Source: a phage
Sequence record: PX104378.1
DNA: 64,000 nucleotides
Direction: 5' to 3' (one strand)
Shown piece by piece: positions 2,270 through 64,000 of the stretch; the first letter of the stretch is position 1; each line of letters opens with the position of its first letter. Position numbers and translations under genes: made by a program. The notes beneath the pieces are model-generated. The model was not told where the DNA came from and made no database searches. It worked only from the letters and a program-made list of their open reading frames with translations.

Positions 2270-3409
2270 ATGACACAAGAGATAGAATTACGCAATACTG
2301 GAATTAAGTTTGCGCATTTCGACGAAGACTCTGCGACATTTACCAGCATTTCAGAAAATAACTCTGTAATGTATAAACTTGAGGTTAGAGGATCTAATGC
2401 GGATTCTACCAAACCAGCAAGGATTAGATTTAATGGAGTGGAGATCGTTGGCACTGGCTATGAAAATGGCCTAAATTTTAAAGTTCTTACTCCAACTGGA
2501 CAATTACACGAAGAAAAGGTATTCTATGGTCGCGGTGCTGTTTTGGCAATGCGTGATTATCTTTCTTTGCTGAAAGGTGATTATATCATTGCGATGGCAA
2601 CGCATGGAGAATTGTTTGCAGATCCGGTAAGTGATGATGTATTCTCTAAGCTGGGATCTGTATCATTCCCGAATCACATTTTGTTACAGCAAATGCCTCG
2701 TGTATCATATGCAGCAATTTATTCTACGAAAATGGGTAAAATTGTTTGTGAGGGTATGCAAGCGACCCACGGGGAAGGGCAAGATTCATCTATACAAATT
2801 GAGAAAGTCTATGATACTATAGATGATCTTGCTATAACAGGAACACCACAACGATTTTTAGATTATCCGGTTGAGTATGTTAGCGAAGATGCCGAACATT
2901 TCGAGCTAATACAATGGCCTCATGATGAGATCAGCGCACCACTTGAAGATTTTAACATAAAGACAGGTGACAAACTATCAATATCTTTTGAATTGTTCCG
3001 TGATAGTGCCGCAGCCGCAGCCAACGTAACAGCGCGTTTCTATCACAACTACTTCACCGATGGACAATATAAAACTGGTGTTCGATACAATGCCAGCAAA
3101 AAAGATCAATGGGAAAAGTTTGAAGCCGTCTATACCGTACCGGAAGGAGTTGATAGTGTTACCACTGGTTGCGTTAGATATCCAACCAACTCAAATGAAG
3201 GTATTGTTAAAGTTAGAAACATACTAATAACGCCGATCAGTGGAGTTGTCAAAACGACTGGTCCTACTTCCTTTGGTGTTAACGGTGTTAGAACAACTCA
3301 CATTCAGGATAACGGTGATTTTACTAACCCTGTAATGAGTCTTCTTAAACTACCCAGAGACAATAAACATATCACATCCAACAACTTTAAAGAGTTCGAT
3401 GTTGATTAA
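2270..3409 (+). CDS. 35: Long tail fibre hinge protein gp35
   Basis: 379 aa (T4 gp35 372 aa); position between 34 and 36; followed by hairpin+T-run terminator. Confidence 0.55.
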   Translation: MTQEIELRNTGIKFAHFDEDSATFTSISENNSVMYKLEVRGSNADSTKPARIRFNGVEIVGTGYENGLNFKVLTPTGQLHEEKVFYGRGAVLAMRDYLSLLKGDYIIAMATHGELFADPVSDDVFSKLGSVSFPNHILLQQMPRVSYAAIYSTKMGKIVCEGMQATHGEGQDSSIQIEKVYDTIDDLAITGTPQRFLDYPVEYVSEDAEHFELIQWPHDEISAPLEDFNIKTGDKLSISFELFRDSAAAAANVTARFYHNYFTDGQYKTGVRYNASKKDQWEKFEAVYTVPEGVDSVTTGCVRYPTNSNEGIVKVRNILITPISGVVKTTGPTSFGVNGVRTTHIQDNGDFTNPVMSLLKLPRDNKHITSNNFKEFDVD

Positions 3410-9196: not shown

Positions 9197-9504
9197 TCTG
9201 GAAACTTCCCGTAAATGTTCTCTGCCAACATACGCGCATCGCTAATGATATCTTTCATGCTATGACCGTAGTGTTCAGCCATTGAGTTGACACAATCAAC
9301 AAAGAAATTATAACGGCGACGGTTTAAGATTTCTTCTCTGCTATAGTTTTCATATTTGACGGTCGAGTGTGCTTTCTCGATTGCCTTTATCGCTATATTG
9401 ACTTCATTGATAATGGTTTTAGCATTGTATGCACCACGACGGATCAGGATATTTGTCAATTCTCTTGCAATATCTTGCAATTCTTCATATTCATGTTCAA
9501 ACAT
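9193..9504 (-). CDS. Hypothetical protein
   Basis: ORF-track 9193..9525 trimmed to the ATG preceded by GAGAGG RBS (MFEHEYEEL...). Confidence 0.45.
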   Translation of the reverse strand: MFEHEYEELQDIARELTNILIRRGAYNAKTIINEVNIAIKAIEKAHSTVKYENYSREEILNRRRYNFFVDCVNSMAEHYGHSMKDIISDARMLAENIYGKFPE

Positions 9505-10464: not shown

Positions 10465-10764
10465 TTATTTTCGGTTGTGGTCACGATATGTTTTAAAATA
10501 TCCCTCGTACCACGGTAAAACATCTGGATTTTTACCACTATACAGACCTTTAACCATCATGTCAATAAGACCGTCCGGTGTTTGATAATTACCAGCTTTT
10601 ATAAGCTCTCTGATTAAAATTTCCTTGTATATGTCTTTCGGATCTTCGTAATCAACTTGTATTGTGGTTGTTGTCCCGCTTAATTTGGTTTCTGGAGTAT
10701 CTTGCATCGCCTTCCACCAATCTTTTGTAATCTTCATGCTGTTGAATTTCATAATTATCTGCAC
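10465..10764 (-). CDS. Hypothetical protein
   Basis: 99-aa ORF; start uncertain. Confidence 0.4.
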   Translation of the reverse strand: MQIIMKFNSMKITKDWWKAMQDTPETKLSGTTTTIQVDYEDPKDIYKEILIRELIKAGNYQTPDGLIDMMVKGLYSGKNPDVLPWYEGYFKTYRDHNRK

Positions 10765-11522
10765 CCGTACTGGTCAACATAGGTTTTAGAGTGTCCTTGT
10801 TCGCGGACTTCTAAGCGAATGATATCGCTATCCTGTTCACGCCACACATAATACTTTTTATTTTCTTTCCAGCCGCTAAAAACGATCATTCCGTTGTCAT
10901 CAACTACTCGTTTTGTGTTTGCCTTATGAACATCATTATTGTCGATGTATGTAAAATGGATAATCTGACCATCTTTTACTTTCAGAGTCAATTCACCTGG
11001 ATTGTATTCTTTATAAAAAGGCTGTTCTTTCGGCTTAGTGTTTGCTCCGTCGATATTTTTCCATTTAAAGTGAGATTCACATTGCAAGGTAAACTCGCTG
11101 GTTTGTGGTTTCTTTTCTTTCTTCGGTTGCTCTACCACTTTTTCTTCCTGTTTCGGTTGTTCTTCTTCAACCTTCGCAGAAGTCTCTGAATCGCTTTCTG
11201 ACGCTGTTTCTTCTTTAGGTAATACATTCATCAAGTTTTGGATTTGAGCGTTATATACAGCCTCCAGTGGCTGAATCTGCCCGATATTGATCATTGTATC
11301 ACGAACGGTTTTATTCCAGTTGCGTTGCTCTTGTTTCAGAGACGGATCAATCTTAACAGCCTTAACATATACTTCATGGAGTTTAGAATCCAGTGCGGAG
11401 ATTGACTCATTAGCACAAATAAACTTCTCTGATTTGGTAGTGGCTTTAGCGCAATCGAAGGACGCAGCATTAGCACCGAATGCAGTAGCAGAAAGAACGA
11501 TAGCAGCGATAATGTTTTTCAT
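10755..11522 (-). CDS. Secreted protein with DUF1311 (LprI-like lysozyme-inhibitor) N-terminal domain
   Basis: Signal peptide MKNIIAAIVLSATAFGANA; motif C..A..T..E..IC...LD..L..Y...QRNW...RD typical of DUF1311; K/E-rich linker; GAGGAATATATT-ATG; promoter cassette upstream. Confidence 0.6.
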   Translation of the reverse strand: MKNIIAAIVLSATAFGANAASFDCAKATTKSEKFICANESISALDSKLHEVYVKAVKIDPSLKQEQRNWNKTVRDTMINIGQIQPLEAVYNAQIQNLMNVLPKEETASESDSETSAKVEEEQPKQEEKVVEQPKKEKKPQTSEFTLQCESHFKWKNIDGANTKPKEQPFYKEYNPGELTLKVKDGQIIHFTYIDNNDVHKANTKRVVDDNGMIVFSGWKENKKYYVWREQDSDIIRLEVREQGHSKTYVDQYGCR

Positions 11523-11556
11523 AATATATTCCTCAGTGTTTTGTCTTGATGTGAGT

Positions 11557-11585
11557 ATCTTACTACTCCCTTAATCCGGTGTCAA
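11557..11585 (-). promoter_or_regulatory. Early promoter cassette with spacer stem-loop (PeSL-like)
   Basis: Minus-strand TTGACA-17nt-TAAGAT; GGGAGTA..TACTCCC inverted repeat; upstream of ORF 10755..11522. Confidence 0.5.
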
Positions 11586-11592
11586 CTACTTT

Positions 11593-11748
11593 TTAAATTT
11601 CTTCTACAGTAAAGTCTTCAATGTTGTTGTGCTCGGCGAACGTTGCCAGACCAGCATTCCATGCATCATCCTCAGAGAAGAATACACCGTAACGTTCATA
11701 TCCCTTAGCGCCTTCAAATTTAACCAGTAATTTGTGAGTATGTTTCAT
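11593..11748 (-). CDS. Hypothetical small protein
   Basis: Track ORF 11593..11811 trimmed to the ATG preceded by AGGAGAATCAAA RBS; promoter cassette at ~11780-11808. Confidence 0.5.
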   Translation of the reverse strand: MKHTHKLLVKFEGAKGYERYGVFFSEDDAWNAGLATFAEHNNIEDFTVEEI

Positions 11749-11779
11749 TTTGATTCTCCTTCGTTGTCTTGATGAGTTC

Positions 11780-11808
11780 ATTGTAGGGGATCGCCGATCC
11801 CCTGTCAA
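11780..11808 (-). promoter_or_regulatory. Early promoter cassette with spacer stem-loop (PeSL-like)
   Basis: TTGACA-GGGGATCGGCGATCCCC-TACAAT; the 17-nt spacer is a near-perfect palindrome. Confidence 0.55.
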
Positions 11809-11818
11809 CAACTATTTT

Positions 11819-12031
11819 TTAATTTTTACCCGCTCGTGCATTAATACGCATTTTCTGAATAGCCATGATCTGGCTTACTGCTTCTTCTTTACGTTCTTGC
11901 GTGATAACGTGACCAGATTCCGCAAACTCTCCCGCAACTTCTTCTACGATCTCGCGAACTTGAGAACATCCAAAGATGCGGTTTCCTTCGTAGCTCATAA
12001 ATTCAGTCACTACTTGCTCAATAGATTTCAT
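11819..12031 (-). CDS. Hypothetical protein
   Basis: 70-aa ORF; RBS AGGAGAATCACATG; promoter cassette upstream. Confidence 0.5.
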   Translation of the reverse strand: MKSIEQVVTEFMSYEGNRIFGCSQVREIVEEVAGEFAESGHVITQERKEEAVSQIMAIQKMRINARAGKN

Positions 12032-12064
12032 GTGATTCTCCTTCTTTCGTTTCGGTATGGGAGT

Positions 12065-12093
12065 ATATTACTACTCCCGTTTCTTTACGTCAA
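12065..12093 (-). promoter_or_regulatory. Early promoter cassette with stem-loop (PeSL-like)
   Basis: TTGACG-17nt-TAATAT; GGGAGTA/TACTCCC inverted repeat flanking the -10. Confidence 0.5.
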
Positions 12094-12100
12094 CTGGTTT

Positions 12101-12343
12101 TTAGAAATTTTTCGCTTCTTCTTCGGTCATCATAACCGCGCATTCGTGCATAACTTTGAAAACCGGATCAATCATGTCAAATGCTTCACGGGACAGTTTA
12201 CGAGAAGCGATTTTGATTGCTTCTACGTCTTCTACTACAGGAACAAAAACAGTTTTCAGTTCGTCGAGGACGGCAGCTTCTTTTTCATTCAGGAAGATCC
12301 CAGCGTCGTACAGTGCAACTTCGATAACATTAACTTTAACCAT
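12101..12343 (-). CDS. Hypothetical protein
   Basis: Track ORF trimmed to the ATG preceded by GGAGGAAATAAAA; 80 aa. Confidence 0.5.
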   Translation of the reverse strand: MVKVNVIEVALYDAGIFLNEKEAAVLDELKTVFVPVVEDVEAIKIASRKLSREAFDMIDPVFKVMHECAVMMTEEEAKNF

Positions 12344-12377
12344 TTTTATTTCCTCCAGTTCGTTTCGGTATGGGAGT

Positions 12378-12406
12378 ATAATACTACCGATGACCTTTGG
12401 CGTCAA
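12378..12406 (-). promoter_or_regulatory. Early promoter cassette (PeSL-like)
   Basis: TTGACG-17nt-TATTAT; imperfect inverted repeat TCGGTA..TACCGA. Confidence 0.45.
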
Positions 12407-12608
12407 CTGCTTTTTTATTATTTTCGTGAAAATTTTTCGTCGCCTCATGTGCTTTTCGCTGGGCTTCTTGTTGTGCTTGCTGGCGTGCTGCCTCTTGCGA
12501 TGCCATAACGGAAGCATTTGCGGCAGTTACAGCCGCTACCATCGCTGCGGTATTGGCATTTACAGTACATGCGCTCGCCAACAAAGCAATTGCAATCATT
12601 TTCTTCAT
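12384..12608 (-). CDS. Small secreted protein / putative lipoprotein
   Basis: Signal peptide MKKMIAIALLASAC (lipobox-like ASAC), then Ala/Gln-rich helical region. Confidence 0.5.
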   Translation of the reverse strand: MKKMIAIALLASACTVNANTAAMVAAVTAANASVMASQEAARQQAQQEAQRKAHEATKNFHENNKKAVDAKGHR

Positions 12609-12775
12609 AATTTCCCCTTTAGGTTATCTTCGACCTTCATCCATTCCGCATATTCTTGCGCGGCTACTTTCGGAATTAGGCCGTCTTCGTACATTGCCTC
12701 AAGTAATTCTTCGTCGGTGGGCTTATACCCCAGATAAGCCGCAACCTGATTTTTCCAAATCTTATACCAGTTCAT
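12605..12775 (-). CDS. Hypothetical small protein
   Basis: Track ORF 12605..12844 trimmed to the ATG (MNWYKIW) preceded by GGTGA. Confidence 0.4.
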   Translation of the reverse strand: MNWYKIWKNQVAAYLGYKPTDEELLEAMYEDGLIPKVAAQEYAEWMKVEDNLKGKL

Positions 12776-12779
12776 ATTA

Positions 12780-13052
12780 TCACCAATCAAGAGCGCGTGT
12801 CTCTGCGTCTTCCCATGCTTGATCCATAACAGCCTTGAAAACATATTCTAAGGTATCATCTTTCGAGAATCCGAAGATCTTAGACGGAATATCTTCAATT
12901 GCTACTCCAGCAACTTCCGCATTACGTGCCTGGCAATAATGCAACTCTAAGTTATCGAGATAACGACCGCCTAATTTCTCCATATCGTCCCAGCATTTCC
13001 AGTAACCTACTTTATCGGCAATTGCTAACACTTTGCTGTTTTTGTTGCTCAT
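12780..13052 (-). CDS. Hypothetical protein
   Basis: Track ORF trimmed to the ATG preceded by AAGGAGAATCAAAG; conserved 5'UTR cassette upstream. Confidence 0.5.
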   Translation of the reverse strand: MSNKNSKVLAIADKVGYWKCWDDMEKLGGRYLDNLELHYCQARNAEVAGVAIEDIPSKIFGFSKDDTLEYVFKAVMDQAWEDAETRALDW

Positions 13053-13081
13053 CTTTGATTCTCCTTTTGTTTGGTATGTGT

Positions 13082-13112
13082 GTATTATGCAATGTTTGAT
13101 TATGGAAGTCAA
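13082..13112 (-). promoter_or_regulatory. Early promoter with conserved 5'UTR cassette
   Basis: TTGACT-~19nt-TAATAC followed by ACACACATACCAA..AGGAGAATCAAAG-ATG. Confidence 0.4.
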
Positions 13113-13120
13113 CAACTTTT

Positions 13121-13152
13121 CAAATAAAAAAGCCGACCACAAGGATCGGCTT
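13121..13152 (-). terminator. Rho-independent terminator after ORF 13162..13554
   Basis: Minus-strand AAGCCGATCC-ttgtgg-TCGGCTT followed by TTTTTATTT. Confidence 0.65.
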
Positions 13153-13161
13153 AATAATCAG

Positions 13162-17150: not shown

Positions 17151-17212
17151 ATTATTCATTCCTCTATTAGTTGGGCGACTCTCGCCGCCCGATTCACATC
17201 ATTATACCAGAA

Positions 17213-20128: not shown

Positions 20129-20158
20129 ATAAGTCAACCTTTTGTTTTCGATGGGGAT

Positions 20159-20187
20159 ATTATGATATATCCCCGATCTCATGTCAA
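20159..20187 (-). promoter_or_regulatory. Early promoter cassette with stem-loop (PeSL-like)
   Basis: TTGACA-17nt-CATAAT; GGGGATAT..ATATCCCC inverted repeat with -10 in loop. Confidence 0.45.
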
Positions 20188-20194
20188 CAACTTT

Positions 20195-20494: not shown

Positions 20495-20528
20495 CGTTAA
20501 ATCCTCATAAAAGAAAAGGGAGACTCCC

Positions 20529-20556
20529 ATTATAGAGAATCTCCCTTGTATGTCAA
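20529..20556 (-). promoter_or_regulatory. Early promoter cassette (PeSL-like) overlapping the topo II stop
   Basis: TTGACA-16nt-TATAAT then GGGAG-T-CTCCC hairpin. Confidence 0.5.
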
Positions 20557-20559
20557 GTG

Positions 20560-26210: not shown

Positions 26211-26237
26211 AATTGATTCTCCTTAGTTGGTATGTGT

Positions 26238-26269
26238 GTATTATTGTCTATCTGGTTTGTGCTGTCAAC
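26238..26269 (-). promoter_or_regulatory. Early promoter with conserved 5'UTR cassette
   Basis: TTGACA-~20nt-TAATAC ACACATACCAACTAAGGAGAATCAATT-ATG. Confidence 0.4.
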
Positions 26270-26271
26270 AC

Positions 26272-26775: not shown

Positions 26776-26807
26776 AATAAAAAGCCTCCAATCTTTCGAC
26801 GGGAGGC
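26776..26807 (-). terminator. Hairpin after gene 56 whose 3' arm contains the SD of the ART-like gene
   Basis: Minus-strand GCCTCC-cgtcgaaagatt-GGAGGC then TTTTTATT-ATG. Confidence 0.45.
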
Positions 26808-26843
26808 ATAATAAAACCATTATAGAGTAGTGTCAACTAATTT

Positions 26844-32882: not shown

Positions 32883-33110
32883 CTATTCAGTTAATCCGTA
32901 ATACTTTAATTGCTTCATTGTTATTCGATCTTTGTAGTGCTCTTGAATTAACTTTTTCATCGCACCAACATCGATCGTCACAAATACTTCGTTGCTGTGA
33001 TTTCCGTGAACTTTCTTGAAATGCTCTATGCCTTCCTCACGTTCACGTTTAATCTTTTCAATGTCTCTCATAGTATATTTCTCACGTTGGCGGGTATCGT
33101 CACCCAACAC
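32883..33110 (-). CDS. Hypothetical protein
   Basis: 75-aa ORF, the only gene between uvsX and 43. Confidence 0.45.
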   Translation of the reverse strand: MLGDDTRQREKYTMRDIEKIKREREEGIEHFKKVHGNHSNEVFVTIDVGAMKKLIQEHYKDRITMKQLKYYGLTE

Positions 33111-33132
33111 CCGCCATTATACACACTTTATC

Positions 33133-35811
33133 TTAAATGTCAAACAGGTCTGTAAGAGATGCCACTTTTTCATATTGCAGCTTTGCAGCCGTGGTAATGT
33201 TCTCCAGTGGTTTGACGAAAGTCTTATTAAACAACAAAGGCCAGTCTAACCACTTTAACACCTCTGATTCAATTTCCGGCGGAATGCGAGTACCAGACAA
33301 CCAACCAAAACAGATTTCTCCAAACGGATTTCGATCTTTAAGCGGTACGATCATAACCTTCTCGCCTTCACGAATCGGATCTAGTCCGAATTTTCGAGCA
33401 TTACGATTATAACACAATACACTCTTAACCGCATATGGACAACCTTTGATCGGATACCCGTTTGAATCGCTGTATTTCTGTAGGTTGTTTGCAGATGATA
33501 CCGCAGCAACCTCAAGATAGTCAAGTTTTCTAAATTCTTGCTCAAAAATACCGTAGTATTCCTGCAATGACTCTTCACCTTCCTGCAACATACGGCGAAT
33601 ACATTCTTTCAGTGATTTCTGACATGCTTTAGGGGTAGAGCTACGTTGCGTTTCCAAGCCCATGATTTTTAGCTTAGGTTCAGCAAATCGCGTTCCTTCC
33701 ATATCCCAAACATTAAGAGCATAACGCTTTTTACCAGTCCAGAATCCACCGATACCCGCAGATTTCAACGGAGGACCAGCAATTGCCTCACGGTCCATAA
33801 ACATCAAGTGCTCATAGTTGTTCATGTACTCGCATAACTCGCGATATCCCTTGTCGATAATAGGTTCCATTCTATGCTTACCGAAATTATCAAGGAAGTC
33901 AACAAGTTTTTCGGTATCGTCGAAACGGTCTTCCCCGCCAACCTTATCAACAACATTGTTAACCAGCACATAAACGGAGTCAGTATCACAATAACGAACA
34001 TATGCAAAATCAGTTGTTCCGCAAAGCTCGTTTAAGTATTCGTTAATCTTACGCTCAATCCACTGAATTGCAAGCTGACCGAACAGTGTGATCGCACTAG
34101 CGTTACGGAGATCATAAAAACGGAATTTAGGATTCCCCAACGCACCATAAAGGGAGTTGATCAAAACTTTTCGAGAAAGCTGGTTTGTATTGCACAAGAT
34201 CGACTCGTCTTTACATTCTTCCAGCAATTTCTCTAAGGCATCTTTGCTCAATTCAGAAAGCATCGATTTAAACGCTTCATCGAAGTCGTGACGCACTTCA
34301 ACGCTATAGCTAATGGTTCCCCCATAAACATGATTTTCATCGTGTAGAATCGCTTTACATAGTTCAGCATTGCGATCACATGCCAACATCATGTTTTTGT
34401 ACTGCTTACGCTGATCGAATACCTTTTTAATCTCAATCGGTACGATACCATGAATATCTTTTCGATACATCCATCCGTTAGGCGAGCAAGAATACTCATC
34501 ACTAGGACGCGGGGCAGTTTTATTGATGTACTCGTGCATTGGTGCAGCATCAAAAGATCCAGCGATTGTTTCCGGCGAAATGTTAACCTGTCGAATAATA
34601 GATGGATACAGACTTGTTAAGTCAAAGCTCATCATCCAGCGATAAGCATTAGGTACTGGCTCTTTTACAAATGCGCCCGGATATGTCTGCTTAGGCTGTA
34701 TCTTATTTTCCGGTACTACTTTACCCTCAGCTTTCAGAGATCCGAAGATAATAGCATCCCATACTTTCATCGGGTTATAAACATGGTTAAATTTAATCTT
34801 TGCATAGAAACATAGACTATACACAAGATCGATAAATCCACGCTTTTTATCAATCGCCAGTACACGATCAACGTCGCCGATGTTATAATCGATGTAAAGT
34901 TGATGGTTGTCATCACGCAATTTCTTTAACGGACCATCATAATCAACCTTACCGATTCCTGTCTCGTATTCAGCAACATAATCTAATGCATATGTTGGTT
35001 GAGTCGTAAAGCTAAATTTCTTGTATAAGTCAATGTAGTCAAGGCTTTCGATCCCCATGATCGTAAATGCTTCACGCTCGTTGCCAAAATCATCCTGTGA
35101 GATTCGGGATTTAATCTTACCGCACGGGCTTAGACGGTTAGCGGTTCTACTTCCGAACTTATTACTGATACGTTTAATGATATATGGAATATCGAATGTT
35201 TCTGTGTTCCAGCCAGTGAAACCAACGGGTCGGTTTTCCTCAAAGAATCGGATGTATTCTAACAGCAATTCATCTTCTGTATCATAGACGTTATAAACAA
35301 CACGTTCTACAATATCTGGGCGAAGAATAGACTTGCTTGCTTCCCAAGATTCACCGTTTTTTCCTTTCAAATCAAATACAAAGAAACGATCATGTACGGA
35401 ATCATAATGCGTAATTGCATCGATAGGATATTTCGCTTCTTCTGGTTTAGGAAATTCTGGGGCAGTGACCTCAATATCAACCCATGCTACACGGATTTTA
35501 TTTCGGTCATATCGAATCTCTCCTTTATACGTATCGGACAGATAGGAGATGATAAAATCATCCATCCCTAGTGCCTCTTGCCCCATTTCCCCCATCTTTT
35601 TACGCCATTTGTTGGCCTCGTTCATAGATGGGAATTTTTTAGCAATGCAAGGCTTGCCATAGATATCTTTATAATTTGTAATCATGCCAGGCGCGGCATG
35701 ATGAAATAAAGTTGGCGTATATTCAACGTAACGCTCTTGTTCTTGTCCAGCATCATCAATATAACGCTCGTAGATCTTATCACCTACTCGCTCACATGAC
35801 AGAAAATACAT
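33133..35811 (-). CDS. 43: DNA polymerase gp43 (family B)
   Basis: Strong match to T4 gp43 (YGKPCIAKKFPSM, exo motifs, SLYPSIIRQVNISPETI, DTDSVYV, KKRYALNV); start set to ATG after AAGGAG (MYFLS...), 892 aa. Confidence 0.95.
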   Translation of the reverse strand: MYFLSCERVGDKIYERYIDDAGQEQERYVEYTPTLFHHAAPGMITNYKDIYGKPCIAKKFPSMNEANKWRKKMGEMGQEALGMDDFIISYLSDTYKGEIRYDRNKIRVAWVDIEVTAPEFPKPEEAKYPIDAITHYDSVHDRFFVFDLKGKNGESWEASKSILRPDIVERVVYNVYDTEDELLLEYIRFFEENRPVGFTGWNTETFDIPYIIKRISNKFGSRTANRLSPCGKIKSRISQDDFGNEREAFTIMGIESLDYIDLYKKFSFTTQPTYALDYVAEYETGIGKVDYDGPLKKLRDDNHQLYIDYNIGDVDRVLAIDKKRGFIDLVYSLCFYAKIKFNHVYNPMKVWDAIIFGSLKAEGKVVPENKIQPKQTYPGAFVKEPVPNAYRWMMSFDLTSLYPSIIRQVNISPETIAGSFDAAPMHEYINKTAPRPSDEYSCSPNGWMYRKDIHGIVPIEIKKVFDQRKQYKNMMLACDRNAELCKAILHDENHVYGGTISYSVEVRHDFDEAFKSMLSELSKDALEKLLEECKDESILCNTNQLSRKVLINSLYGALGNPKFRFYDLRNASAITLFGQLAIQWIERKINEYLNELCGTTDFAYVRYCDTDSVYVLVNNVVDKVGGEDRFDDTEKLVDFLDNFGKHRMEPIIDKGYRELCEYMNNYEHLMFMDREAIAGPPLKSAGIGGFWTGKKRYALNVWDMEGTRFAEPKLKIMGLETQRSSTPKACQKSLKECIRRMLQEGEESLQEYYGIFEQEFRKLDYLEVAAVSSANNLQKYSDSNGYPIKGCPYAVKSVLCYNRNARKFGLDPIREGEKVMIVPLKDRNPFGEICFGWLSGTRIPPEIESEVLKWLDWPLLFNKTFVKPLENITTAAKLQYEKVASLTDLFDI

Positions 35812-35843
35812 AATATAAACTCCTTCACTTACGAAAGACACTC

Positions 35844-35872
35844 ATTATAGGGGAATCGACTTAGTTTGTCAA
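35844..35872 (-). promoter_or_regulatory. Early promoter cassette upstream of gene 43
   Basis: TTGACA-17nt-TATAAT; flanking inverted repeat ATAGGGG..CCCCTAT. Confidence 0.55.
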
Positions 35873-35893
35873 TACCCCTATCCCATCAGTATC

Positions 35894-37810: not shown

Positions 37811-37837
37811 ATAATCACCTCTCACAAATTACATCAT

Positions 37838-37863
37838 TAAAATGGGGAGTATTTACACTCCCC
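37838..37863 (-). other. Stem-loop in the 45-44 intergenic region
   Basis: Minus-strand GGGGAGT-gtaaat-ACTCCCC followed by ATTTTAAT. Confidence 0.4.
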
Positions 37864-37875
37864 GCAAATATTATA

Positions 37876-38562
37876 TTAGTCGGTGTAGCTGGAGTCAAGG
37901 TCACACGCGATCATATAAGATACGGTTTCACTTGCCAGCCATACAGCCTTACGGCGAGTGAAGCTCAGTTTGTAATCGCCGAAGTCGGTAGCAACCAGTT
38001 TCATGTTATCTTTACGAATAAAGAAATGGAAGTCTGCGGTTCCGGCATATTCGCCCATATCAAGACAAAACATCTCATTAGGATTATTTTTGTCAATCTC
38101 TTCCCAACCTTTGATCATCAGACGACCATCAATCGGAAGAAATTCAAGGCGGTCCACTTTAAGCTGATTGCTCATTTTCATAAGCTGTTTCAGATCGTCG
38201 TTGCTCAGTTCGTAATCTACATCGCTTGCAGGTGGAGTAACTCGGCCTTTCGGTGATACGATAGCGGCAGCACTAGCACCAGGATAATTAATTTTCAGAC
38301 GATCGTTAGACACACGAATGTTTCCGGTGCGGTCATCAACCGTAATATCTGCTTCATCACCTACCAGATTCAGAATACCCAGGAAAGAGTTAAGATCATA
38401 GATCCCGATTTCGTGTTCCAGTTCTTGATTCAGAGTCGCTTCACCATATACAACGTTTGTCATGTTTTTGGTGATCAGGACGTTTCCTTTTTTCAGGATG
38501 ATACCTGGGTTAATAGCGGAAAAATTTTTCAGAGTTGCAATAGTTTCTTTAGTCAGTTTCAT
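37876..38562 (-). CDS. 45: Sliding clamp gp45
   Basis: MKLTKETIATLKNFSAINPGI matches T4 gp45 N-terminus; track's first codon is TTG, so start set to the following ATG. Confidence 0.9.
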   Translation of the reverse strand: MKLTKETIATLKNFSAINPGIILKKGNVLITKNMTNVVYGEATLNQELEHEIGIYDLNSFLGILNLVGDEADITVDDRTGNIRVSNDRLKINYPGASAAAIVSPKGRVTPPASDVDYELSNDDLKQLMKMSNQLKVDRLEFLPIDGRLMIKGWEEIDKNNPNEMFCLDMGEYAGTADFHFFIRKDNMKLVATDFGDYKLSFTRRKAVWLASETVSYMIACDLDSSYTD

Positions 38563-42635: not shown

Positions 42636-42661
42636 AACAACCTCCAATCAATTTTTAGAGA

Positions 42662-42689
42662 GTATAACGGGGATTTCTCCCCGCGTCAA
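42662..42689 (-). promoter_or_regulatory. Early promoter cassette with spacer stem-loop (PeSL-like)
   Basis: TTGACG-c-GGGGAGAAATCCCC-g-TTATAC; just downstream of the gene 47 stop. Confidence 0.5.
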
Positions 42690-43724
42690 CTAACTTTTTG
42701 CGCTATTTACTTCGGCTAAAAGTTCATCAGAAATACGCTTGACCGCCGCAAGTTCATCCGGTTCTAGGTTTTGTTCTTCCAGATATTCGTAAACCATTTG
42801 AATAGTGCTTTTAACCTCAATAACACCAGTTTCCTGTGATGCGCTACTCTCCAGCTTATGGACCACTTTTAGCTTGTGTACAACGGCCTCTAACGCGCTT
42901 TCTAACTTAGTTAACCCATTATCAGCGACCGTTGCGATAAGACGCACACTAAGCCCCTTATAGCGTTCTACATCGATTTTATCATCTGACGGGTAAGTGA
43001 TACGCACATGATAAGTTTTGTCATTCTGGATAAACTCTTTTTTGTGTGTATCGGTATCGAATACCCAAAAACCACGCGGATCGTTTTCGTCACCAGCCGT
43101 TAGTGTGTATGGTGTACCGATATACGTTACGTTACCGCCATCGCTGATAGTATGAAAGTGACCAGAAAACACTTCACGATATTTCTTGAGGAAGTCCGCG
43201 CTATAACCTTCGGATTTTAGCCCTTTATAGAAATAGTAACCAGACAATTCCCAATGGCCTACACAATATTCGCTGAATGAGTTTTGAATAAACTCTAAAA
43301 TCTCTGATTTATTGTCATCACAAAACCACGGGAACAGATCAAATGATACACCATCAAAGGTGACTGTTTCCGGTTTATCAATAACCTTAATGCAATCATA
43401 CTGGCTTAACACTTCACGCGGTGCGTTAGGCTGGATCTTGTTTCGTTTAAACATATCATGATTCCCGACCGTGGTATAACAAGTAATACCAGCCTCTTCC
43501 AGTAGCGGGATAATTTTCGTTCTATTAAAACGCATAGTTGCATGTGTGATTGCTTTTCGGCAATCAAACCAGTCCCCTGTCTGAATCCATGCCTTAATAT
43601 TATGTTTTTTTGAATAATCGACTGCCTTTTTAATAGTATCAAGAATATACTCATGTATCCACGGATCATCGTTGCCGATACCAGTATGCAGATCACCTAA
43701 AAGCAAAATTTTCATATTATACAT
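42690..43724 (-). CDS. 47: Recombination nuclease subunit gp47 (Mre11/SbcD-like)
   Basis: Phosphoesterase motifs (LLLGDLHTG, GDWFD, GNHD, GHFH) and long blocks matching T4 gp47. Confidence 0.9.
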   Translation of the reverse strand: MYNMKILLLGDLHTGIGNDDPWIHEYILDTIKKAVDYSKKHNIKAWIQTGDWFDCRKAITHATMRFNRTKIIPLLEEAGITCYTTVGNHDMFKRNKIQPNAPREVLSQYDCIKVIDKPETVTFDGVSFDLFPWFCDDNKSEILEFIQNSFSEYCVGHWELSGYYFYKGLKSEGYSADFLKKYREVFSGHFHTISDGGNVTYIGTPYTLTAGDENDPRGFWVFDTDTHKKEFIQNDKTYHVRITYPSDDKIDVERYKGLSVRLIATVADNGLTKLESALEAVVHKLKVVHKLESSASQETGVIEVKSTIQMVYEYLEEQNLEPDELAAVKRISDELLAEVNSAKS

Positions 43725-43730
43725 AATCTC

Positions 43731-44285
43731 CTAAAAATTTTTAACACCATATTCACCAAAATAAAGATCAACCGCTTTGTCATAAGCTCTAGCCGCATCT
43801 TCTTCGTTGACATAATACCCAAGAGATATTAGTTTATCATTATTTCGTATTCTTGCAACCCATTTCTTCGTATGTTTATGCCAGCTAACTCCTTTATACT
43901 TGCTTGCTTTATTCTTGTACTTTCCAACGTTACAAGCATTTTTCTTTGCGTCGGACTCTCTAAGATTGCGCGGTGCGTTGTTTAAAGGATTTCGGTCTAT
44001 ATGATCTATAATTTCTGGTTGTGTTCCATGCTCAAGAAACCATACAACACGATGTACATATGGCTTTAAAACCCTCCCATTATCCATAACGATTGCAATT
44101 TGGAGATGATCCTGACTTTTAAAAGTTTTTACTTTATCTCCTGCCTTATAAAACTTTCCTTCGTAATTCTTTCCTCCGGCTCGGCTATTCTTTAAATGAT
44201 AAAGAATACCCTCATCGTCATGTCTATATCTTTCTCTTATAATTCGTTGCGTTTCTTCATCCCACAATTTGGAACGTCTACTCAT
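43731..44285 (-). CDS. HNH homing endonuclease with AP2 DNA-binding domain
   Basis: HNH core HRVVWFLEHG..IDHIDRNPLNNAPRNLR followed by AP2-like YKGVSWHKHTKKWVARI...LGYY..EEDAARAYD. Confidence 0.8.
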   Translation of the reverse strand: MSRRSKLWDEETQRIIRERYRHDDEGILYHLKNSRAGGKNYEGKFYKAGDKVKTFKSQDHLQIAIVMDNGRVLKPYVHRVVWFLEHGTQPEIIDHIDRNPLNNAPRNLRESDAKKNACNVGKYKNKASKYKGVSWHKHTKKWVARIRNNDKLISLGYYVNEEDAARAYDKAVDLYFGEYGVKNF

Positions 44286-50667: not shown

Positions 50668-50709
50668 ATTTGATTCTCCTGTAAAGTTGTATCTCGTCTT
50701 GATGAATAT

Positions 50710-50738
50710 AGTATAGGGGATCTCGCGATCCCCGTCAA
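50710..50738 (-). promoter_or_regulatory. Early promoter cassette with spacer stem-loop (PeSL-like)
   Basis: TTGACG-GGGGATCGCGAGATCCCC-TATACT; spacer palindrome contains GATC. Confidence 0.55.
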
Positions 50739-50742
50739 GCAT

Positions 50743-51291
50743 TTATTTTAAATTTTTTCGAATGTATTCAGACCATTCCTTCCCTGTCAGTTCGGTCCCA
50801 TTCTGGAAACTGAAATATTCATACGGCATCGAGTCAAGATAAAACAGGATCATACATCGCGCCATATAATACCAATCACGATTAAAGTAAACTACGTTAT
50901 CACCAGTACCATCAGCACCTTTATCATAACCATCGCGGGTACGGGCGACCCATTGAATGGTATCATTTTTCTCACGGATAGTAACAGGTTCCCAATATCC
51001 AGCACATCCAGCATGACCACACGAACAAGTAAGGAAATATTGACCTTTTGCTTTGTTGTCATCCCATTCACGATGAATTGGTTTGATTTCGTGAAACATT
51101 GCCAAACAATCATGATTATGCAACACTGGCTTACCATCAATCAATGCATGGAATGTATACAAACGACCCGTAGACAAATAGCTATCCTCACGCTCAACCA
51201 GTTCAATAGCAATCTTTTTAGCTCGTTCTTTGTGTCGTTGTGCTTTACGCTTACGGTTTAATGATTTCATATTCACCTCACACATTATCAA
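50743..51291 (-). CDS. Hypothetical Cys/His-rich protein
   Basis: 182 aa; HNHDC...CSCGHAGCAGYW cluster suggests metal binding. Confidence 0.5.
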   Translation of the reverse strand: MIMCEVNMKSLNRKRKAQRHKERAKKIAIELVEREDSYLSTGRLYTFHALIDGKPVLHNHDCLAMFHEIKPIHREWDDNKAKGQYFLTCSCGHAGCAGYWEPVTIREKNDTIQWVARTRDGYDKGADGTGDNVVYFNRDWYYMARCMILFYLDSMPYEYFSFQNGTELTGKEWSEYIRKNLK

Positions 51292-51827: not shown

Positions 51828-51927
51828 GTTGTCCTCTCGTTGTTTTCGATGTGAGCATTATACATTAGCCAATCATGTTGTCAACACCCCAAAACGAAAA
51901 AGCCGACCCTTTCGGATCGGCTGAAAA

Positions 51928-54329: not shown

Positions 54330-54359
54330 AATATAATCCTCTCGTTGTTAAGTGGGAGT

Positions 54360-54387
54360 ATTATAGCATACTCCCTTCGCATGTCAA
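54360..54387 (-). promoter_or_regulatory. Early promoter cassette with stem-loop (PeSL-like)
   Basis: TTGACA-16nt-TATAAT; GGGAGTAT..ATACTCCC inverted repeat encloses the -10. Confidence 0.55.
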
Positions 54388-55562: not shown

Positions 55563-55593
55563 AATATAATCCTCTCGTTGTTTAGATGGGAGT

Positions 55594-55622
55594 ATCTTAC
55601 TACTCCCGTTTCATCATGTCAA
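55594..55622 (-). promoter_or_regulatory. Early promoter cassette with stem-loop (PeSL-like)
   Basis: TTGACA-17nt-TAAGAT; GGGAGTA..TACTCCC. Confidence 0.55.
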
Positions 55623-56472: not shown

Positions 56473-56503
56473 TGTTGATTCTCCTTCTTGATTAGATGGG
56501 AGT

Positions 56504-56532
56504 ATTTTACTACTCCCATTTCTTATTGTCAA
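56504..56532 (-). promoter_or_regulatory. Early promoter cassette with stem-loop (PeSL-like)
   Basis: TTGACA-17nt-TAAAAT; GGGAGTA..TACTCCC. Confidence 0.55.
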
Positions 56533-56535
56533 CTA

Positions 56536-59694: not shown

Positions 59695-59728
59695 AATATA
59701 ATCCTCACATCGTTCATTTGATGCGGTC

Positions 59729-59757
59729 ATTATATGATAACCGCATTTTCATGTCAA
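59729..59757 (-). promoter_or_regulatory. Early promoter cassette (PeSL-like)
   Basis: TTGACA-17nt-TATAAT; imperfect inverted repeat GCGGT..ACCGC around the -10. Confidence 0.5.
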
Positions 59758-59763
59758 CAGTTT

Positions 59764-60361: not shown

Positions 60362-60403
60362 TTTGATTCTCCTTAAGAAAGTGTGTTTCGTTTTGATGTG
60401 TGT

Positions 60404-60432
60404 AGTATAGGGGATACGTGATCCCCTGTCAA
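60404..60432 (-). promoter_or_regulatory. Early promoter cassette with spacer stem-loop (PeSL-like)
   Basis: TTGACA-GGGGATCACGTATCCCC-TATACT; conserved 5'UTR to AGGAGAATCAAA-ATG. Confidence 0.55.
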
Positions 60433-60440
60433 CAACTTTT

Positions 60441-60770
60441 TTATGATTTTAGTGAATTAACTACTACATCAAAATGATGTACAGAGCACACCTTACGAAA
60501 CACGTATTCATCATGTTTAGGAATCTCCCCTAACCTCTCTATTTCGCTCGCTAACACGATAAACCGTTTATCCGGTACATTTACCTTATATGCTTCAACA
60601 ACGCACGGAAAACGCGTTTTAGCGAGTTCGGGATAGTTTTCTGACTCCATCAGGACAATGAATACTCTGTTACATTGATTGTAGAATCCTGTTTTTGATT
60701 TCATTAAGTTTTCTTCTCTGTGCAATTCGTGCAATCTTCCTTTCATGATTTCGTTGGTTCTTGTCTTCAC
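60441..60770 (-). CDS. Hypothetical protein (start uncertain)
   Basis: Track ORF begins at GTG and overlaps the upstream ORF by ~100 nt; true start probably an internal ATG. Confidence 0.35.
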   Translation of the reverse strand: MKTRTNEIMKGRLHELHREENLMKSKTGFYNQCNRVFIVLMESENYPELAKTRFPCVVEAYKVNVPDKRFIVLASEIERLGEIPKHDEYVFRKVCSVHHFDVVVNSLKS

Positions 60771-62665: not shown

Positions 62666-62694
62666 CTTTGATTCTCCTTAGTTGGTATGTGTGC

Positions 62695-62722
62695 ATTATA
62701 GCACTATGATTTTCATTGTCAA
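62695..62722 (-). promoter_or_regulatory. Early promoter with conserved 5'UTR cassette
   Basis: TTGACA-16nt-TATAAT GCACACATACCAACTAAGGAGAATCAAAG-ATG. Confidence 0.5.
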
Positions 62723-62726
62723 CAAC

Positions 62727-62760
62727 TAAAAACAAAAAAGGCTATCCAGAAGGATAGCCC
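62727..62760 (-). terminator. Rho-independent terminator after the glycine-rich gene
   Basis: Minus-strand GGCTATCC-ttct-GGATAGCC followed by TTTTTTGTTTTT. Confidence 0.65.
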
Positions 62761-62766
62761 ATAAAA

Positions 62767-63828: not shown

Positions 63829-63867
63829 TTTTGATTCTCCTAGAAAGTGTATCTCGTTTCGATGTGT

Positions 63868-63899
63868 GTATTATGCAATAACACCGGATCACTGTCAAC
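63868..63899 (-). promoter_or_regulatory. Early promoter with conserved 5'UTR cassette
   Basis: TTGACA-~20nt-TAATAC ACACATCGAAACGAGATACACTTTCTAGGAGAATCAAAA-ATG. Confidence 0.4.
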
Positions 63900-64000
63900 A
63901 CTTTCTAAGAAAAATTTTAAATTAATCGAATATAGCCCAGAATTTCAGCACCTTTAGCCAGTCCTAAAACTTCCCATTCAAGGTCGCCGTAGTCATAATT

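Follow-up and report, generated by a model that had tools for sequence, protein, structure and literature searches.

Promoter and stem-loop cassettes at gene boundaries in a Krischvirus genome

The stretch of phage DNA analysed here (64,000 nucleotides, hereafter the window) belongs to an RB49-type Krischvirus and is 94-97% identical to RB49, phi1, JSE and ELT4 (about 96-97% for RB49 itself). It carries 23 minus-strand cassettes which, judged from their sequence, are very probably promoter-early stem-loops (PeSLs), the elements known from RB49 and phi1 and seen here in a further Krischvirus. PeSLs have already been described; the finding is real, and the kind of element is not new. A documented mechanism of phage genome plasticity was in this case recognised from raw sequence. 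We observed the anatomy of the cassettes, their enrichment, their orthology with RB49 PeSLs, the rearrangement junctions lying within them and a strand bias of their variants; promoter activity, terminator activity and mini-circles are taken from the literature, where they were established on a few RB49 cassettes. For the specialist, the analysis adds 10 more genomes whose junctions cluster not in the hairpins but in conserved patches of the cassettes, a sense-strand G·U bias pointing to an RNA-level role of the hairpins, and near-identical cassettes in jumbo phages.

Promoter cassettes of the minus strand

Sites were defined by a -35 hexamer with at least 5 of 6 matches, a spacer of 16-18 nt and a total of at least 10, 11 or 12 matches out of 12, and were counted in the window and in 100 dinucleotide-preserving shuffles. 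At these three stringencies, the minus strand contained 59, 31 and 9 TTGACA-N16-18-TATAAT-like sites, against shuffle means of 9.9, 1.2 and 0.06 and plus-strand counts of 9, 0 and 0. The comparison with shuffled sequence, named in the earlier note on this DNA as a possible refutation, placed the minus-strand sites far above the shuffle means (6- to 150-fold), and at high stringency sites were found on the minus strand only.

The earlier note had reported at least 18 minus-strand sites, each located by the last base of its -10 hexamer. All 18 are present, four of them in the local region 11557-12406 and 14 elsewhere. The four local copies are real, with -35 hexamers starting at 12406, 12093, 11808 and 11585 on the minus strand. 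Five further cassettes were found, at 51884, 37898, 33143, 26836 and, in a weaker form, 22473, which brings the total to 23 (Table 1). Every cassette has a -35 hexamer with at least 5 of 6 matches, and seven are perfect 12/12 promoters. The spacer, previously given as 16-20 nt, measured 16 nt at 7 sites and 17 nt at the other 16. The A-rich tract described before was confirmed, as the 20 nt 5' of the -35 hexamer have an A+T content of 72% and an A content of 41%, whereas the whole strand has 59% and 31%. In most cassettes the stop codon of the upstream gene lies 0-10 nt 5' of the -35 hexamer, and at 54387 and 55622 it lies inside TTGACA itself (at 54387 as the TGA of the hexamer). The sites are intergenic, with 25-44 nt between the -10 hexamer and the ATG and a Shine-Dalgarno sequence (SD) reading AAGGAGAATCA or GAGGATTATATT. 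Each of the four local sites has a 17-nt spacer and 31-34 nt from the -10 hexamer to the SD, which is followed by the ATG.

Table 1. Cassettes of the window and the variable module, with their parts and RB49 counterparts.
Feature	Position	Strand	Promoter and hairpin	Other parts and context	RB49 counterpart
c11585	11523..11592	-	-35 TTGACA 11585-11580; -10 TAAGAT 11562-11557; GGGAGTA-gtaaga-TACTCaC 11570-11551, weakened by C-to-A, intact in RB49, JSE, ELT4	SD GAGGAA; ATG 11522; 255-aa secreted protein with LprI domain	Pe:158760
c11808	11749..11818	-	-35 TTGACA 11808-11803; -10 TACAAT 11785-11780; GGGGATC-ggc-GATCCCC fills spacer 11802-11786	SD; ATG 11748; 51-aa ORFan	Pe:158983
c12093	12032..12100	-	-35 TTGACG 12093-12088; -10 TAATAT 12070-12065; intact 7-bp GGGAGTA-gtaata-TACTCCC 12078-12059, -10 in loop	SD AAGGAGAATCA; ATG 12031; 70-aa ORFan	Pe:159267
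c12406	12344..12426	-	-35 TTGACG 12406-12401; 17-nt spacer; -10 TATTAT 12383-12378; degenerate GGtAGTA..TACTCCC	A-tract; SD GGAGGA; ATG 12343	
Variable module, 523 bp	12095..12617	-		74-aa gene, c12406, 80-aa gene	
c13112	13053..13161	-	-35 TTGACT 13112-13107; -10 CATAAT 13089-13084	SD; ATG 13052; upstream intrinsic-terminator hairpin and T-run 13152-13130	Pe:159769; TransTerm terminator 159775-159793
c20187	20129..20194	-	-35 TTGACA; GGGGATAT-atcata-ATATCCCC, -10 CATAAT in loop		Pe:2846
c20556	20495..20559	-	perfect TTGACA-16-TATAAT within 13-bp hairpin, then TTTTCTTTT		TransTerm terminator 3163-3190
Weaker cassette	22473	-	weaker cassette		
c26268	26211..26271	-	promoter; no convincing hairpin	leader, SD; 5' of srd	Pe:8927
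c26836	26776..26843	-	GCCTCC..GGAGGC and T-run after -10	hairpin sequesters SD; 5' of modB	Pe:9496; TransTerm terminator 9430-9453
c33143	33072..33143	-	perfect promoter; 12-bp leader hairpin	after gene 43, before ORF025/uvsX	
c35872	35812..35893	-	perfect promoter; ATAGGGG..CCCCTAT encloses -35	5' of gene 43	
c37898	37811..37898	-	GGGGAGT..ACTCCCC then TTTT, just past -10	5' of gene 44	
c42689	42636..42689	-	spacer hairpin GCGGGGA-gaaa-TCCCCGT		
c50738	50668..50760	-	spacer hairpin GGGGATC-gcga-GATCCCC		Pe:33349
c51884	51828..51927	-	perfect promoter	terminator hairpin and T-run precede promoter	Pe:34495; terminator 34499-34518
c54387	54330..54387	-	GGGAGTAT..ATACTCCC, -10 in loop		Pe:36999
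c55622	55563..55622	-	GGGAGTA-gtaaga-TACTCCC around -10		Pe:38234
c56532	56473..56535	-	ATGGGAGTA-gtaaaa-TACTCCCAT around -10		Pe:39144
c59757	59695..59763	-	perfect promoter; 10-bp ATGCGGTTAT..ATGACCGCAT, -10 in loop		Pe:42369
c60432	60362..60455	-	spacer GGGGAT-cacgt-ATCCCC		Pe:43045
c62722	62666..62766	-	perfect promoter	upstream terminator hairpin and T-run precede promoter	Pe:45336
c63898	63829..63920	-	promoter; no strong hairpin	leader, SD	Pe:46502

The cassettes had been said to drive small early genes. They do precede small genes, but large ones as well, including gene 43 (DNA polymerase), gene 44, srd, modB and frd.2. Published PeSLs flank gene 43 and lie mostly 5' of ORFans in hyperplastic regions (Arbiol 2010, PMC2839356); here too gene 43 has a cassette on either side (33143 and 35872), and the local genes have no assigned function. 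The 523-bp variable module is absent from RB49, phi1, JSE, JEP8 and L010, and its downstream junction falls exactly at the -35 hexamer of c12093. Neither its 74-aa nor its 80-aa gene matches a PHROG or Pfam family. The cassette which it contains, c12406, is present in ELT4, Skers, Makalu_002 and PHB13 and absent in RB49, phi1, JSE and JEP8. For annotation, 23 early transcription units can be placed in this way, and modules such as 12095-12617 can be treated as accessory genes bounded by cassettes.

The comparison with RB49, phi1 and JSE, also proposed earlier, revealed gene insertions and deletions at cassettes, and syntenic orthologues in RB49/phi1/JSE/ELT4 for 22 of the 23 cassettes. Sixteen coincide with early promoters among the 51 predicted for RB49 by Nolan 2006 (PMC1524935), the source of the published coordinates used here; these sixteen include Pe:158760, Pe:158983 and Pe:159267, the three orthologues that the local copies have in RB49. 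Three more (c33143, c35872 and c37898) carry the label 'hypothetical early promoter' in the GenBank entry of RB49. Furthermore, c60432 is identical to RB49 PeSL211/210 over 70 bases, hairpin included, and c11808 has its promoter core in common with PeSL206/205 (20-nt exact match), whose promoter yielded about 13,000 Miller units (PMC2839356). The 22 orthologues, the 16 published promoters and the 70-base identity argue that the sites are true PeSLs and not just PeSL-like. The match to PeSLs made in the earlier note was borne out, since all the sequence-level features that define these elements (Arbiol 2010, PMC2839356; Comeau 2014, PMC4122927) were found.

The RB49/phi1 PeSLs (PMC2839356) have the same strand, TTGACA-N17-TATAAT promoter, A/T tract, five hairpin positions, and SD and ATG, and gene-indel junctions inside the cassettes have been reported for that phage pair. 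We found no difference in kind; the present phage has the additional c12406 in its two-gene module, as do ELT4, Skers and others, and weakened stems at 11585 and 12406. In the RB49 early-promoter studies (Nolan 2006, and Desplats 2002 as far as it is represented in PMC1524935), promoters and terminators were treated separately, and the embedded hairpins were not taken as part of one unit.

Position, stability and variation of the hairpins

A hairpin of the form Gn-loop-Cn was found in 20 of the 23 cassettes, the remaining three having no convincing one. It lies in the spacer in four cassettes, around the -10 hexamer in seven (plus two with degenerate stems), around the -35 hexamer in one, upstream in three and downstream in three, and these five positional classes are those of PMC2839356. 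The palindrome had been placed inside the spacer. This is correct for GGGGATC..GATCCCC, but GGGAGTA..TACTCCC straddles the -10 hexamer, which forms its loop, and its 3' arm reaches to about +1. GGGAGTA-N6-TACTCCC, counted with at most one mismatch, occurs four times, and GGGGAT-N3-7-ATCCCC occurs three times, against none in 100 shuffles in either case. The mean folding energy of the cassette cores is -11.0 kcal/mol, compared with -7.5 in 31 intragenic promoter-like controls (p=0.003), and z-scores computed from shuffles of each cassette were -2.8 or below in 12 of the 23. Among the local hairpins, those at 11808 and 12093 are intact, and those at 11585 and 12406 are degenerate. The mismatching T at 12406 belongs to a stop codon, TAG (12386-12384); it ends the 74-aa gene upstream, and this gene overlaps the promoter. 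At c12093 the stem is invariant in 10 genomes and the loop is variable.

The two main classes of hairpin, those of the spacer and those whose loop contains the -10 hexamer, end at or before the predicted +1. They are therefore not leader structures at the 5' end of the mRNA that the cassette itself produces, and this idea was rejected for both classes. A U-run (5-8 T in 9 nt) follows the upstream hairpins of c13112, c51884 and c62722 and the hairpins of c20556, c26836 and, weakly, c37898. At c20556, the promoter sits inside a hairpin of 13 bp with TTTTCTTTT after it, so that it coincides with an intrinsic terminator. Only 0-4 T in 9 nt follow the hairpins of the spacer and -10-loop classes, the local ones among them, and most of these received no TransTerm call in RB49, so that they are not canonical intrinsic terminators. 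An Rfam scan of the whole window gave zero matches at the gathering threshold. Two further candidates, a small GTGC..GCAC stem at c62722 and a weak stem at c63898, were rejected as unconserved among the relatives.

We then considered the variants that the hairpins carry in orthologous cassettes. RNAalifold applied to whole alignments predicted many spurious long-range helices; the local hairpins were kept, and the spurious ones served as internal control. In the curated hairpins, transition variants kept a sense-strand G·U pair in 11 cases and produced A·C in one, a count that comprises 12 variants in hairpins curated after the folds had been seen. The corresponding ratio in the other predicted helices was 9:8 (binomial p=0.006, Fisher p=0.04). 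Variants of c59757 among the relatives also preserve G·U pairing. In the upstream terminator of c62722, three pairs switch from one Watson-Crick pair to another, two of them by double compensatory changes and the third between G-C and A-U. The G·U bias suggests an RNA-level role of the hairpins.

These data bear on the operator suggested in the earlier note. In this reading, a dimeric phage or host protein would bind the inverted repeat over the spacer or the -10 hexamer and tune or shut early promoters, with no RNA role. The same arms do occur at a fixed distance from the -10 hexamer in non-orthologous cassettes (GGGAGTA/TACTCCC at 11585, 12093, 55622 and 56532; GGGGAT/ATCCCC at 11808, 50738 and 60432), most stems are invariant in 10 genomes, the spacer and the -10 hexamer are where a repressor would act, and Arbiol 2010 speculated on a protein recognising GGGG..CCCC (PMC2839356). 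However, there are at least eight stem sequences in five positions relative to the promoter, including 5' of the -35 hexamer and 3' of +1, which fits selection for pairing and not for one binding site. Loop sequence and length vary freely, and an 11:1 asymmetry between the strands is unexpected for a site in double-stranded DNA. Moreover, in a reporter that contained no phage proteins, the isolated hairpin alone lowered read-through (PMC2839356). The pattern of variation among the relatives does not favour operators, which we regard as highly improbable.

It could also be that the cassettes are promoters only, the palindromes being functionless passengers of an ancestral duplication and any repeat being able to recombine. 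Since the cassettes form sequence subfamilies with long exact stretches, common descent explains much of their similarity, and 5 of the 23 work with a degenerate hairpin or none. Against this, unrelated stem sequences all pair, the z-scores against shuffles are low, and neither the compensatory changes at c62722 nor the G·U bias would be expected of passengers. The hairpin of PeSL211/210, identical to that of c60432, was roughly equal to rrnB T1 in reducing lacZ read-through (PMC2839356). A role of the hairpins in RNA is the reading we prefer, and promoters with idle palindromes appear very unlikely.

Control by Dam methylation was considered and rejected. The phage encodes Dam, and the GGGGATC..GATCCCC spacers carry two GATC each; however, GATC is not clearly enriched in the 23 promoters (7 versus 4.5 expected) and is common genome-wide (359 versus 229 expected), so that there is no case for such control.

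Cassettes at rearrangement junctions

The relatives were compared using GenBank phage records; an IMG/VR protein search yielded two Krischvirus loci. Among 10 relatives, 10 of 40 junction points fell within cassettes, against 4.4% expected (p=7e-6). Counted as events, the unique structural differences number 25. Cassettes hold a junction of 8 of them, in several cases at one end only, and the other 17 (homing endonucleases and replacements within genes) are unrelated to cassettes. The role in modular gene shuffling proposed in the earlier note is borne out by such junctions in the local 11557-12406 region itself.

Two of the differences are clean cassette-by-cassette deletions. In PHB13 the segment 11601-11808 is missing, the crossover being in the common A-tract; in ECD7 the segment 12044-13055 is missing, and AAGGAGAATCA holds the crossover. 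At c13112, Makalu_002 and L010 possess one more gene, together with a cassette for it. In JSE, the leader of c20187 is swapped at CATCGAAA, a 589-bp insertion abuts the -35 hexamer of c20556, and a homing-endonuclease insertion has its junction at the -35 hexamer of c26836.

Stems and loops contain none of the resolved junctions, which map to the A-tract, the edge of the -35 hexamer, the CATC-leader or the SD. Non-orthologous cassettes of the window share exact matches of up to 26 nt, compared with a maximum of 10 in random controls. The junctions are found in the stretches most alike between cassettes, as expected of simple homology-driven exchange. Alternatively, the hairpins might be DNA targets of structure-specific recombination, being cut or bound as cruciforms or single-strand hairpins, for example by endonuclease VII, and so drive the shuffling, with transcription insulation being secondary. 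The enrichment of cassettes at junctions fits this proposal, endonuclease VII (gene 49) is encoded within the window, and one crossover of an RB49 mini-circle has been placed in a hairpin loop (PMC2839356). Nevertheless, the position of the resolved junctions outside every stem and loop, together with the junctions carried by c13112 and c26836, which have no core hairpin, makes cutting or binding at the hairpins a highly unlikely cause, and homologous exchange is preferred.

The mini-circles of RB49 arise by exchange between neighbouring cassettes (PMC2839356). The deletions of PHB13 and ECD7 have the topology that mini-circle excision would leave.

Proposed mechanism and related systems

In the following scheme we infer the timing, the exact action of the hairpins that have no U-tract and the recombination proteins involved. 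The cassette is a unit of about 70-100 bp with a fixed order of parts. An A-rich, UP-like tract, usually holding the stop codon of the upstream gene, precedes a near-consensus sigma-70 promoter, probably read by the unmodified host RNA polymerase right after infection. There follow a conserved start region with C-A-T-C about 7 nt past the -10 hexamer, a leader of about 25 nt, a strong SD and the ATG. The G-rich/C-rich hairpin is placed within or beside the promoter, and most commonly it either occupies the spacer or has a loop that contains the -10 hexamer. As a hairpin that ends at or before +1 is absent from the cassette's own transcript, it would form only in RNA reading through from upstream, which it may attenuate or terminate, or whose 3' end it may fix. 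Insulated by the hairpin and equipped with its own promoter, each gene would be an insulated unit. The repeats, all in the same orientation, would provide the phage recombination system with short homologies at gene boundaries, the conserved patches concerned being the A-tract, the -35 hexamer, the CATC-leader and the SD. Through these homologies whole genes could be deleted, inserted or swapped with expression intact.

Similar composites of terminator and promoter at ORFan boundaries, in hyperplastic regions and associated with indels, are the PeSLs/PmSLs of T4/PST and KVP40/nt-1 (PMC4122927). Their consensuses differ (TTTACW.., TTGYVH..), and their stems are richer in A/T and located just 5' of the promoter, whereas the stems of the present phage are rich in G/C and lie for the most part within the promoter. 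Lambdoid morons are likewise autonomous single-gene expression units inserted between genes, but no conserved repeat bounds them and their regulatory parts are not regarded as agents of their movement. Integron cassettes (attC) are also small promoter-dependent modules with imperfect palindromic repeats and circular intermediates. They depend on a dedicated integrase acting on folded attC, whereas the junctions described here fit homologous exchange, and no integrase of that kind is known here.

The cassette design is shared with Rak2-like jumbo phages, in which near-identical cassettes occur, and with an unclassified 174-kb phage contig. From this one would infer that regulatory cassettes were exchanged between very distant phage lineages or inherited from a common ancestor. 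That the hairpins without a U-run, the spacer and -10-loop classes which form the majority, are not classical terminators and instead sense-strand RNA elements of read-through transcripts only, and that the jumbo-phage sharing reflects such cross-lineage exchange or common ancestry, is a tentative reading which we consider possible yet rather unlikely as a whole; candidate roles for the read-through RNA element are a 3'-end protector, a processing site or a pause site that may prevent promoter occlusion. The design shared with the jumbo phages reaches to the TTGACA-GGGGAT-N5-ATCCCC-TATAAT core and the CATC start.

Distribution and identity of the promoter cassettes

Four near-identical intergenic units lie on the minus strand within 11400-12600, and all of them show the shared promoter layout claimed by the earlier note. 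An A-rich tract, here with a stop codon in it, leads into a -35 of TTGACA or TTGACG, which a 17-nt spacer separates from the -10; a strong Shine-Dalgarno (SD) sequence and ATG follow after about 31-34 nt. A window-wide scan recovered all 14 non-local sites named in that note (the sites are real, the positions given there being the last base of each -10) and brought the total to 23 cassettes. Promoter matches were defined by a -35 of at least 5/6, a spacer of 16-18 nt, a -10 with A2 and T6, and minimum totals of 10, 11 or 12 of 12. At these cut-offs, 59/31/9 matches lay on the minus strand, as compared to means of 9.9/1.2/0.06 in 100 dinucleotide-preserving shuffles, and 9/0/0 on the plus strand. 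In this comparison, proposed in the earlier note, the cassette promoter sites exceed chance. GGGAGTA-N6-TACTCCC (at most one mismatch) occurred four times and GGGGAT-N3-7-ATCCCC three times, against 0 in 100 shuffles for each. In the 20 nt upstream of the -35, A+T makes up 72% and A alone 41%; over the whole strand these shares are 59% and 31%. The consensus of the 23 cassettes, aaaAgttG-TTGACA-N16/17-TATAAT-ac.C.CATc.aaA, indicates that the start region is conserved too.

Sigma-70-like matches within coding sequence (8948-64000, minus strand; e.g. 17615, 19573, 29596, 39721) were also enriched, at 31/13/2 versus 9.7/1.7/0.1 with synonymous codons shuffled (totals of at least 10/11/12), and have neither hairpins nor SD sequences. 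One of them, a perfect promoter at 19573 in ORF002, about 80 nt upstream of rIIA, coincides with the RB49 early promoter Pe:2232. At 54382-54387 and 55617-55622 (cassettes c54387 and c55622), the upstream gene has its stop codon in the TGA of the -35 TTGACA, which makes the overlap of gene end and promoter complete. A different promoter layout was seen at 17151-17212, before a small ORF upstream of rIIB, where an intergenic extended -10-like element, TGGTATAAT, has no -35 and is followed 3' by a GGGCG..CGCCC hairpin.

The window shares 94-97% identity with phages of the genus Krischvirus (RB49, phi1, JSE, ELT4 and about 55 others), RB49 position 1, at rIIA, corresponding to window position 17356. 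RB49 and phi1 carry about 51-52 promoter-early stem-loops (PeSLs) per genome, mainly upstream of ORFans in hyperplastic regions and flanking gene 43 on either side; each combines a promoter of sigma-70 consensus with an A/T-rich tract upstream of it, a poly-G/poly-C hairpin in one of five alternative positions, and SD plus ATG (Arbiol et al. 2010, PMC2839356). Comeau et al. 2014 (PMC4122927) give the RB49 type as TTGACA-N17-TATAAT plus a Gn-loop-Cn stem. The window cassettes show all of these published sequence features. Syntenic orthologues in RB49, phi1, JSE and ELT4 were found for 22 of the 23, and 16 correspond to early promoters of RB49 in the list of Nolan et al. 2006, the local copies having Pe:158760, Pe:158983 and Pe:159267 as counterparts; the GenBank record of RB49 labels another three "hypothetical early promoter". 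PeSL211/210 of RB49, whose hairpin was tested as a terminator, is TTGACAGGGGATcacgtATCCCCTATACT and matches c60432 exactly over 70 nt. The core of PeSL206/205 of RB49, tested as a promoter, is TTGACAGGGGATCGGTGATCCCCTATAAT; c11808 differs from it by one loop base and one -10 base. Given these features and direct links, the cassettes are PeSLs, and not just PeSL-like as first described. The observation is thus confirmed with corrections and its interpretation supported, for elements that are already known and mostly orthologous to described ones. What is new, and only mildly so, is limited to the junction counts obtained with additional genomes, the bias of hairpin variants towards sense-strand G·U, the lack of a U-run behind most embedded hairpins, and the occurrence of near-identical cassettes in Rak2-like jumbo phages.

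Outside Krischvirus, Rak2-like jumbo phages and a 174-kb contig that is unclassified also carry the core TTGACA-GGGGAT-N5-ATCCCC-TATAAT in exact form, together with the CATC start and SD/ATG. Several same-strand promoter-hairpin cassettes lie upstream of small ORFs at each of these loci. No description of PeSLs in these jumbo phages or this contig was found in the literature searched.

Cassettes, hairpin classes, junctions and related loci. Cassettes (c) are designated by the first base of the -35 hexamer, minus strand.
Feature	Position	Remarks
Local -35 hexamers	12406, 12093, 11808, 11585	minus strand
Cassettes additional to the earlier list	51884, 37898, 33143, 26836, 22473	22473 weaker
Hairpin wholly within spacer	11808, 42689, 50738, 60432
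-10 hexamer in hairpin loop	12093, 20187, 20556, 54387, 55622, 56532, 59757
-10 in loop, degenerate copies	11585, 12406
Hairpin around -35	35872
Hairpin upstream of promoter	13112, 51884, 62722	with T-run
Hairpin downstream of -10	26836, 33143, 37898
No convincing hairpin	26268, 63898, 22473
PHB13 deletion	11601-11808	51-aa gene and one cassette; crossover in common TTAAAAA A-tract
ECD7 deletion	12044-13055	crossover in common SD AAGGAGAATCA
ORF263.1 insertion	A-tract of c11808	in phi1, Skers and compared locus L010
523-bp two-gene module	12095-12617	absent from RB49, phi1, JSE, JEP8, L010; downstream junction at c12093 -35
Extra 68-aa gene with own cassette	c13112	in Makalu_002, L010
JSE leader swap	c20187	at CATCGAAA
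JSE insertions	c20556, c26836	adjoin the -35 of each
Non-Krischvirus core, L020		IMGVR_UViG_3300007747_000008, 174 kb, unclassified contig
Non-Krischvirus core, L022 and L025		contigs of about 360 kb
Non-Krischvirus core, L031	337593-348206	Salmonella phage 7t3

Hairpin anatomy and proposed working

The mean folding energy of the cassette cores was -11.0 kcal/mol, that of 31 promoter-like controls from within genes -7.5 (Mann-Whitney p=0.003), and 12 cassettes reached z <= -2.8, each against its own shuffles. Relative to the promoter, the hairpins fall into five positional classes. The earlier description of the spacer as a palindrome holds for the GGGGATC type only, since the arms of GGGAGTA..TACTCCC lie on either side of the -10 and the palindrome reaches to about +1. 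All four local copies have the promoter but only two have an intact hairpin. In c12406, the mismatched T of the stem is part of the TAG stop of the upstream 74-aa gene.

Of the 9 nt that follow the stem in spacer and -10-loop hairpins, only 0-4 are T. T-runs of 7-8 accompany only the upstream hairpins and those of c20556 and c26836, and TransTerm calls in RB49 fall mainly on these, indicating that most embedded hairpins are not canonical intrinsic terminators, although an identical one blocked read-through in a published reporter. In c20556 (20495-20559), a perfect TTGACA-16-TATAAT lies within a 13-bp hairpin followed by TTTTCTTTT; because its own transcript starts inside the 3' arm, the full terminator would exist only in gene 39 read-through RNA.

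The near-consensus promoter and UP-like A-tract would allow immediate use by unmodified host polymerase, as the cited experiments support. Spacer and -10-loop hairpins end at or before the predicted +1; they should therefore be absent from the cassette's own RNA, and would form only in RNA arriving from upstream. This position fits the published insulator/attenuator model, which the scarcity of T after these hairpins and the pairing bias of hairpin variants (below) refine.

The earlier note had proposed either an operator or an RNA structure for the palindrome. Among transition variants of curated hairpins in orthologues from up to 10 relatives, sense-strand G·U was kept 11 times versus once for A·C, as compared to 9:8 in other predicted helices of the same alignments (binomial p=0.006, Fisher p=0.04). 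Such an asymmetry is predicted by selection on sense-strand RNA structure and not by a double-stranded operator, but is only suggestive given the small sample and the curation of hairpins after folding. DNA operator sites would agree with the finding that two arm sequences recur at fixed positions; this reading loses weight because stems and positions are diverse, loops vary freely, variants show the G·U bias, and the isolated hairpin was active in a reporter without phage proteins. In the upstream terminator within c62722, two pairs show double compensatory changes and a third alternates between G-C and A-U. These compensatory changes, and the fact that unrelated stems all pair, also weaken the "passenger palindrome" model.

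Upstream of modB (26776-26843, c26836), a GCCTCC..GGAGGC hairpin sequesters the SD and is followed by TTTTT directly before the ATG. Located downstream of the cassette's own promoter and called as a terminator by TransTerm in RB49, it may serve attenuation or translational control of modB.

Recombination junctions and variable genes

We aligned the full window with RB49, phi1, JSE, ELT4, JEP8, PHB13 and Skers, and parts of it with Makalu_002, ECD7 and one IMG/VR contig. The early-gene region showed 25 unique structural differences, eight of them with a junction inside a cassette span; 10/40 junction points fell in these spans, which cover 4.4% of the region (p=7e-6). The 1.7 kb that holds the local cassettes was a hot spot for rearrangement. 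All resolved junctions lay in the patches best conserved between cassettes and none of them in a stem or loop, which favours ordinary short-homology exchange over structure-specific cleavage and weakens a model in which the hairpins are cruciform targets of recombination. The other 17 differences were unrelated to cassettes: they involve homing endonucleases (within gene 43, within nrdD and close to gene 56), the 43717-44281 HNH gene and within-gene replacements. The gene shuffling proposed earlier is thus borne out for part of the genome plasticity, the same conclusion as that of Arbiol et al. 2010 (PMC2839356).

The gene at 10755-11522 encodes a 255-aa homologue of RB49 ORF260, for which a signal peptide was predicted (Nolan 2006); the product has a Pfam match to LprI, a lysozyme-inhibitor domain (E=1.2e-5). 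In most of the compared relatives, unrelated sequence of about equal length takes the place of the 3' third of this gene (10757-11120), with a clean same-length swap in 7/10. The 74-aa ORF of the variable module (12384-12608) starts with MKKMIAIALLASAC, resembling a lipoprotein signal, and had no PHROG or Pfam match. A 169-bp deletion in PHB13 (12447-12615) takes out most of this ORF and appears, from a by-eye reading of the junction, to keep the reading frame, 169 not being a multiple of three and the alignments overlapping by 4 nt. The HNH/AP2 homing-endonuclease gene (43717-44281, RB49 ORF040), present in the window and RB49, is precisely absent from phi1, JSE, ELT4, JEP8, PHB13 and Skers. 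In Skers (L016, 7640-8419), the gene 38 adhesin lies on the late strand, immediately behind gene 37, and does not occupy the early-region position that it has in the window (62767-63552) and RB49, indicating that the gene was relocated between genomes.
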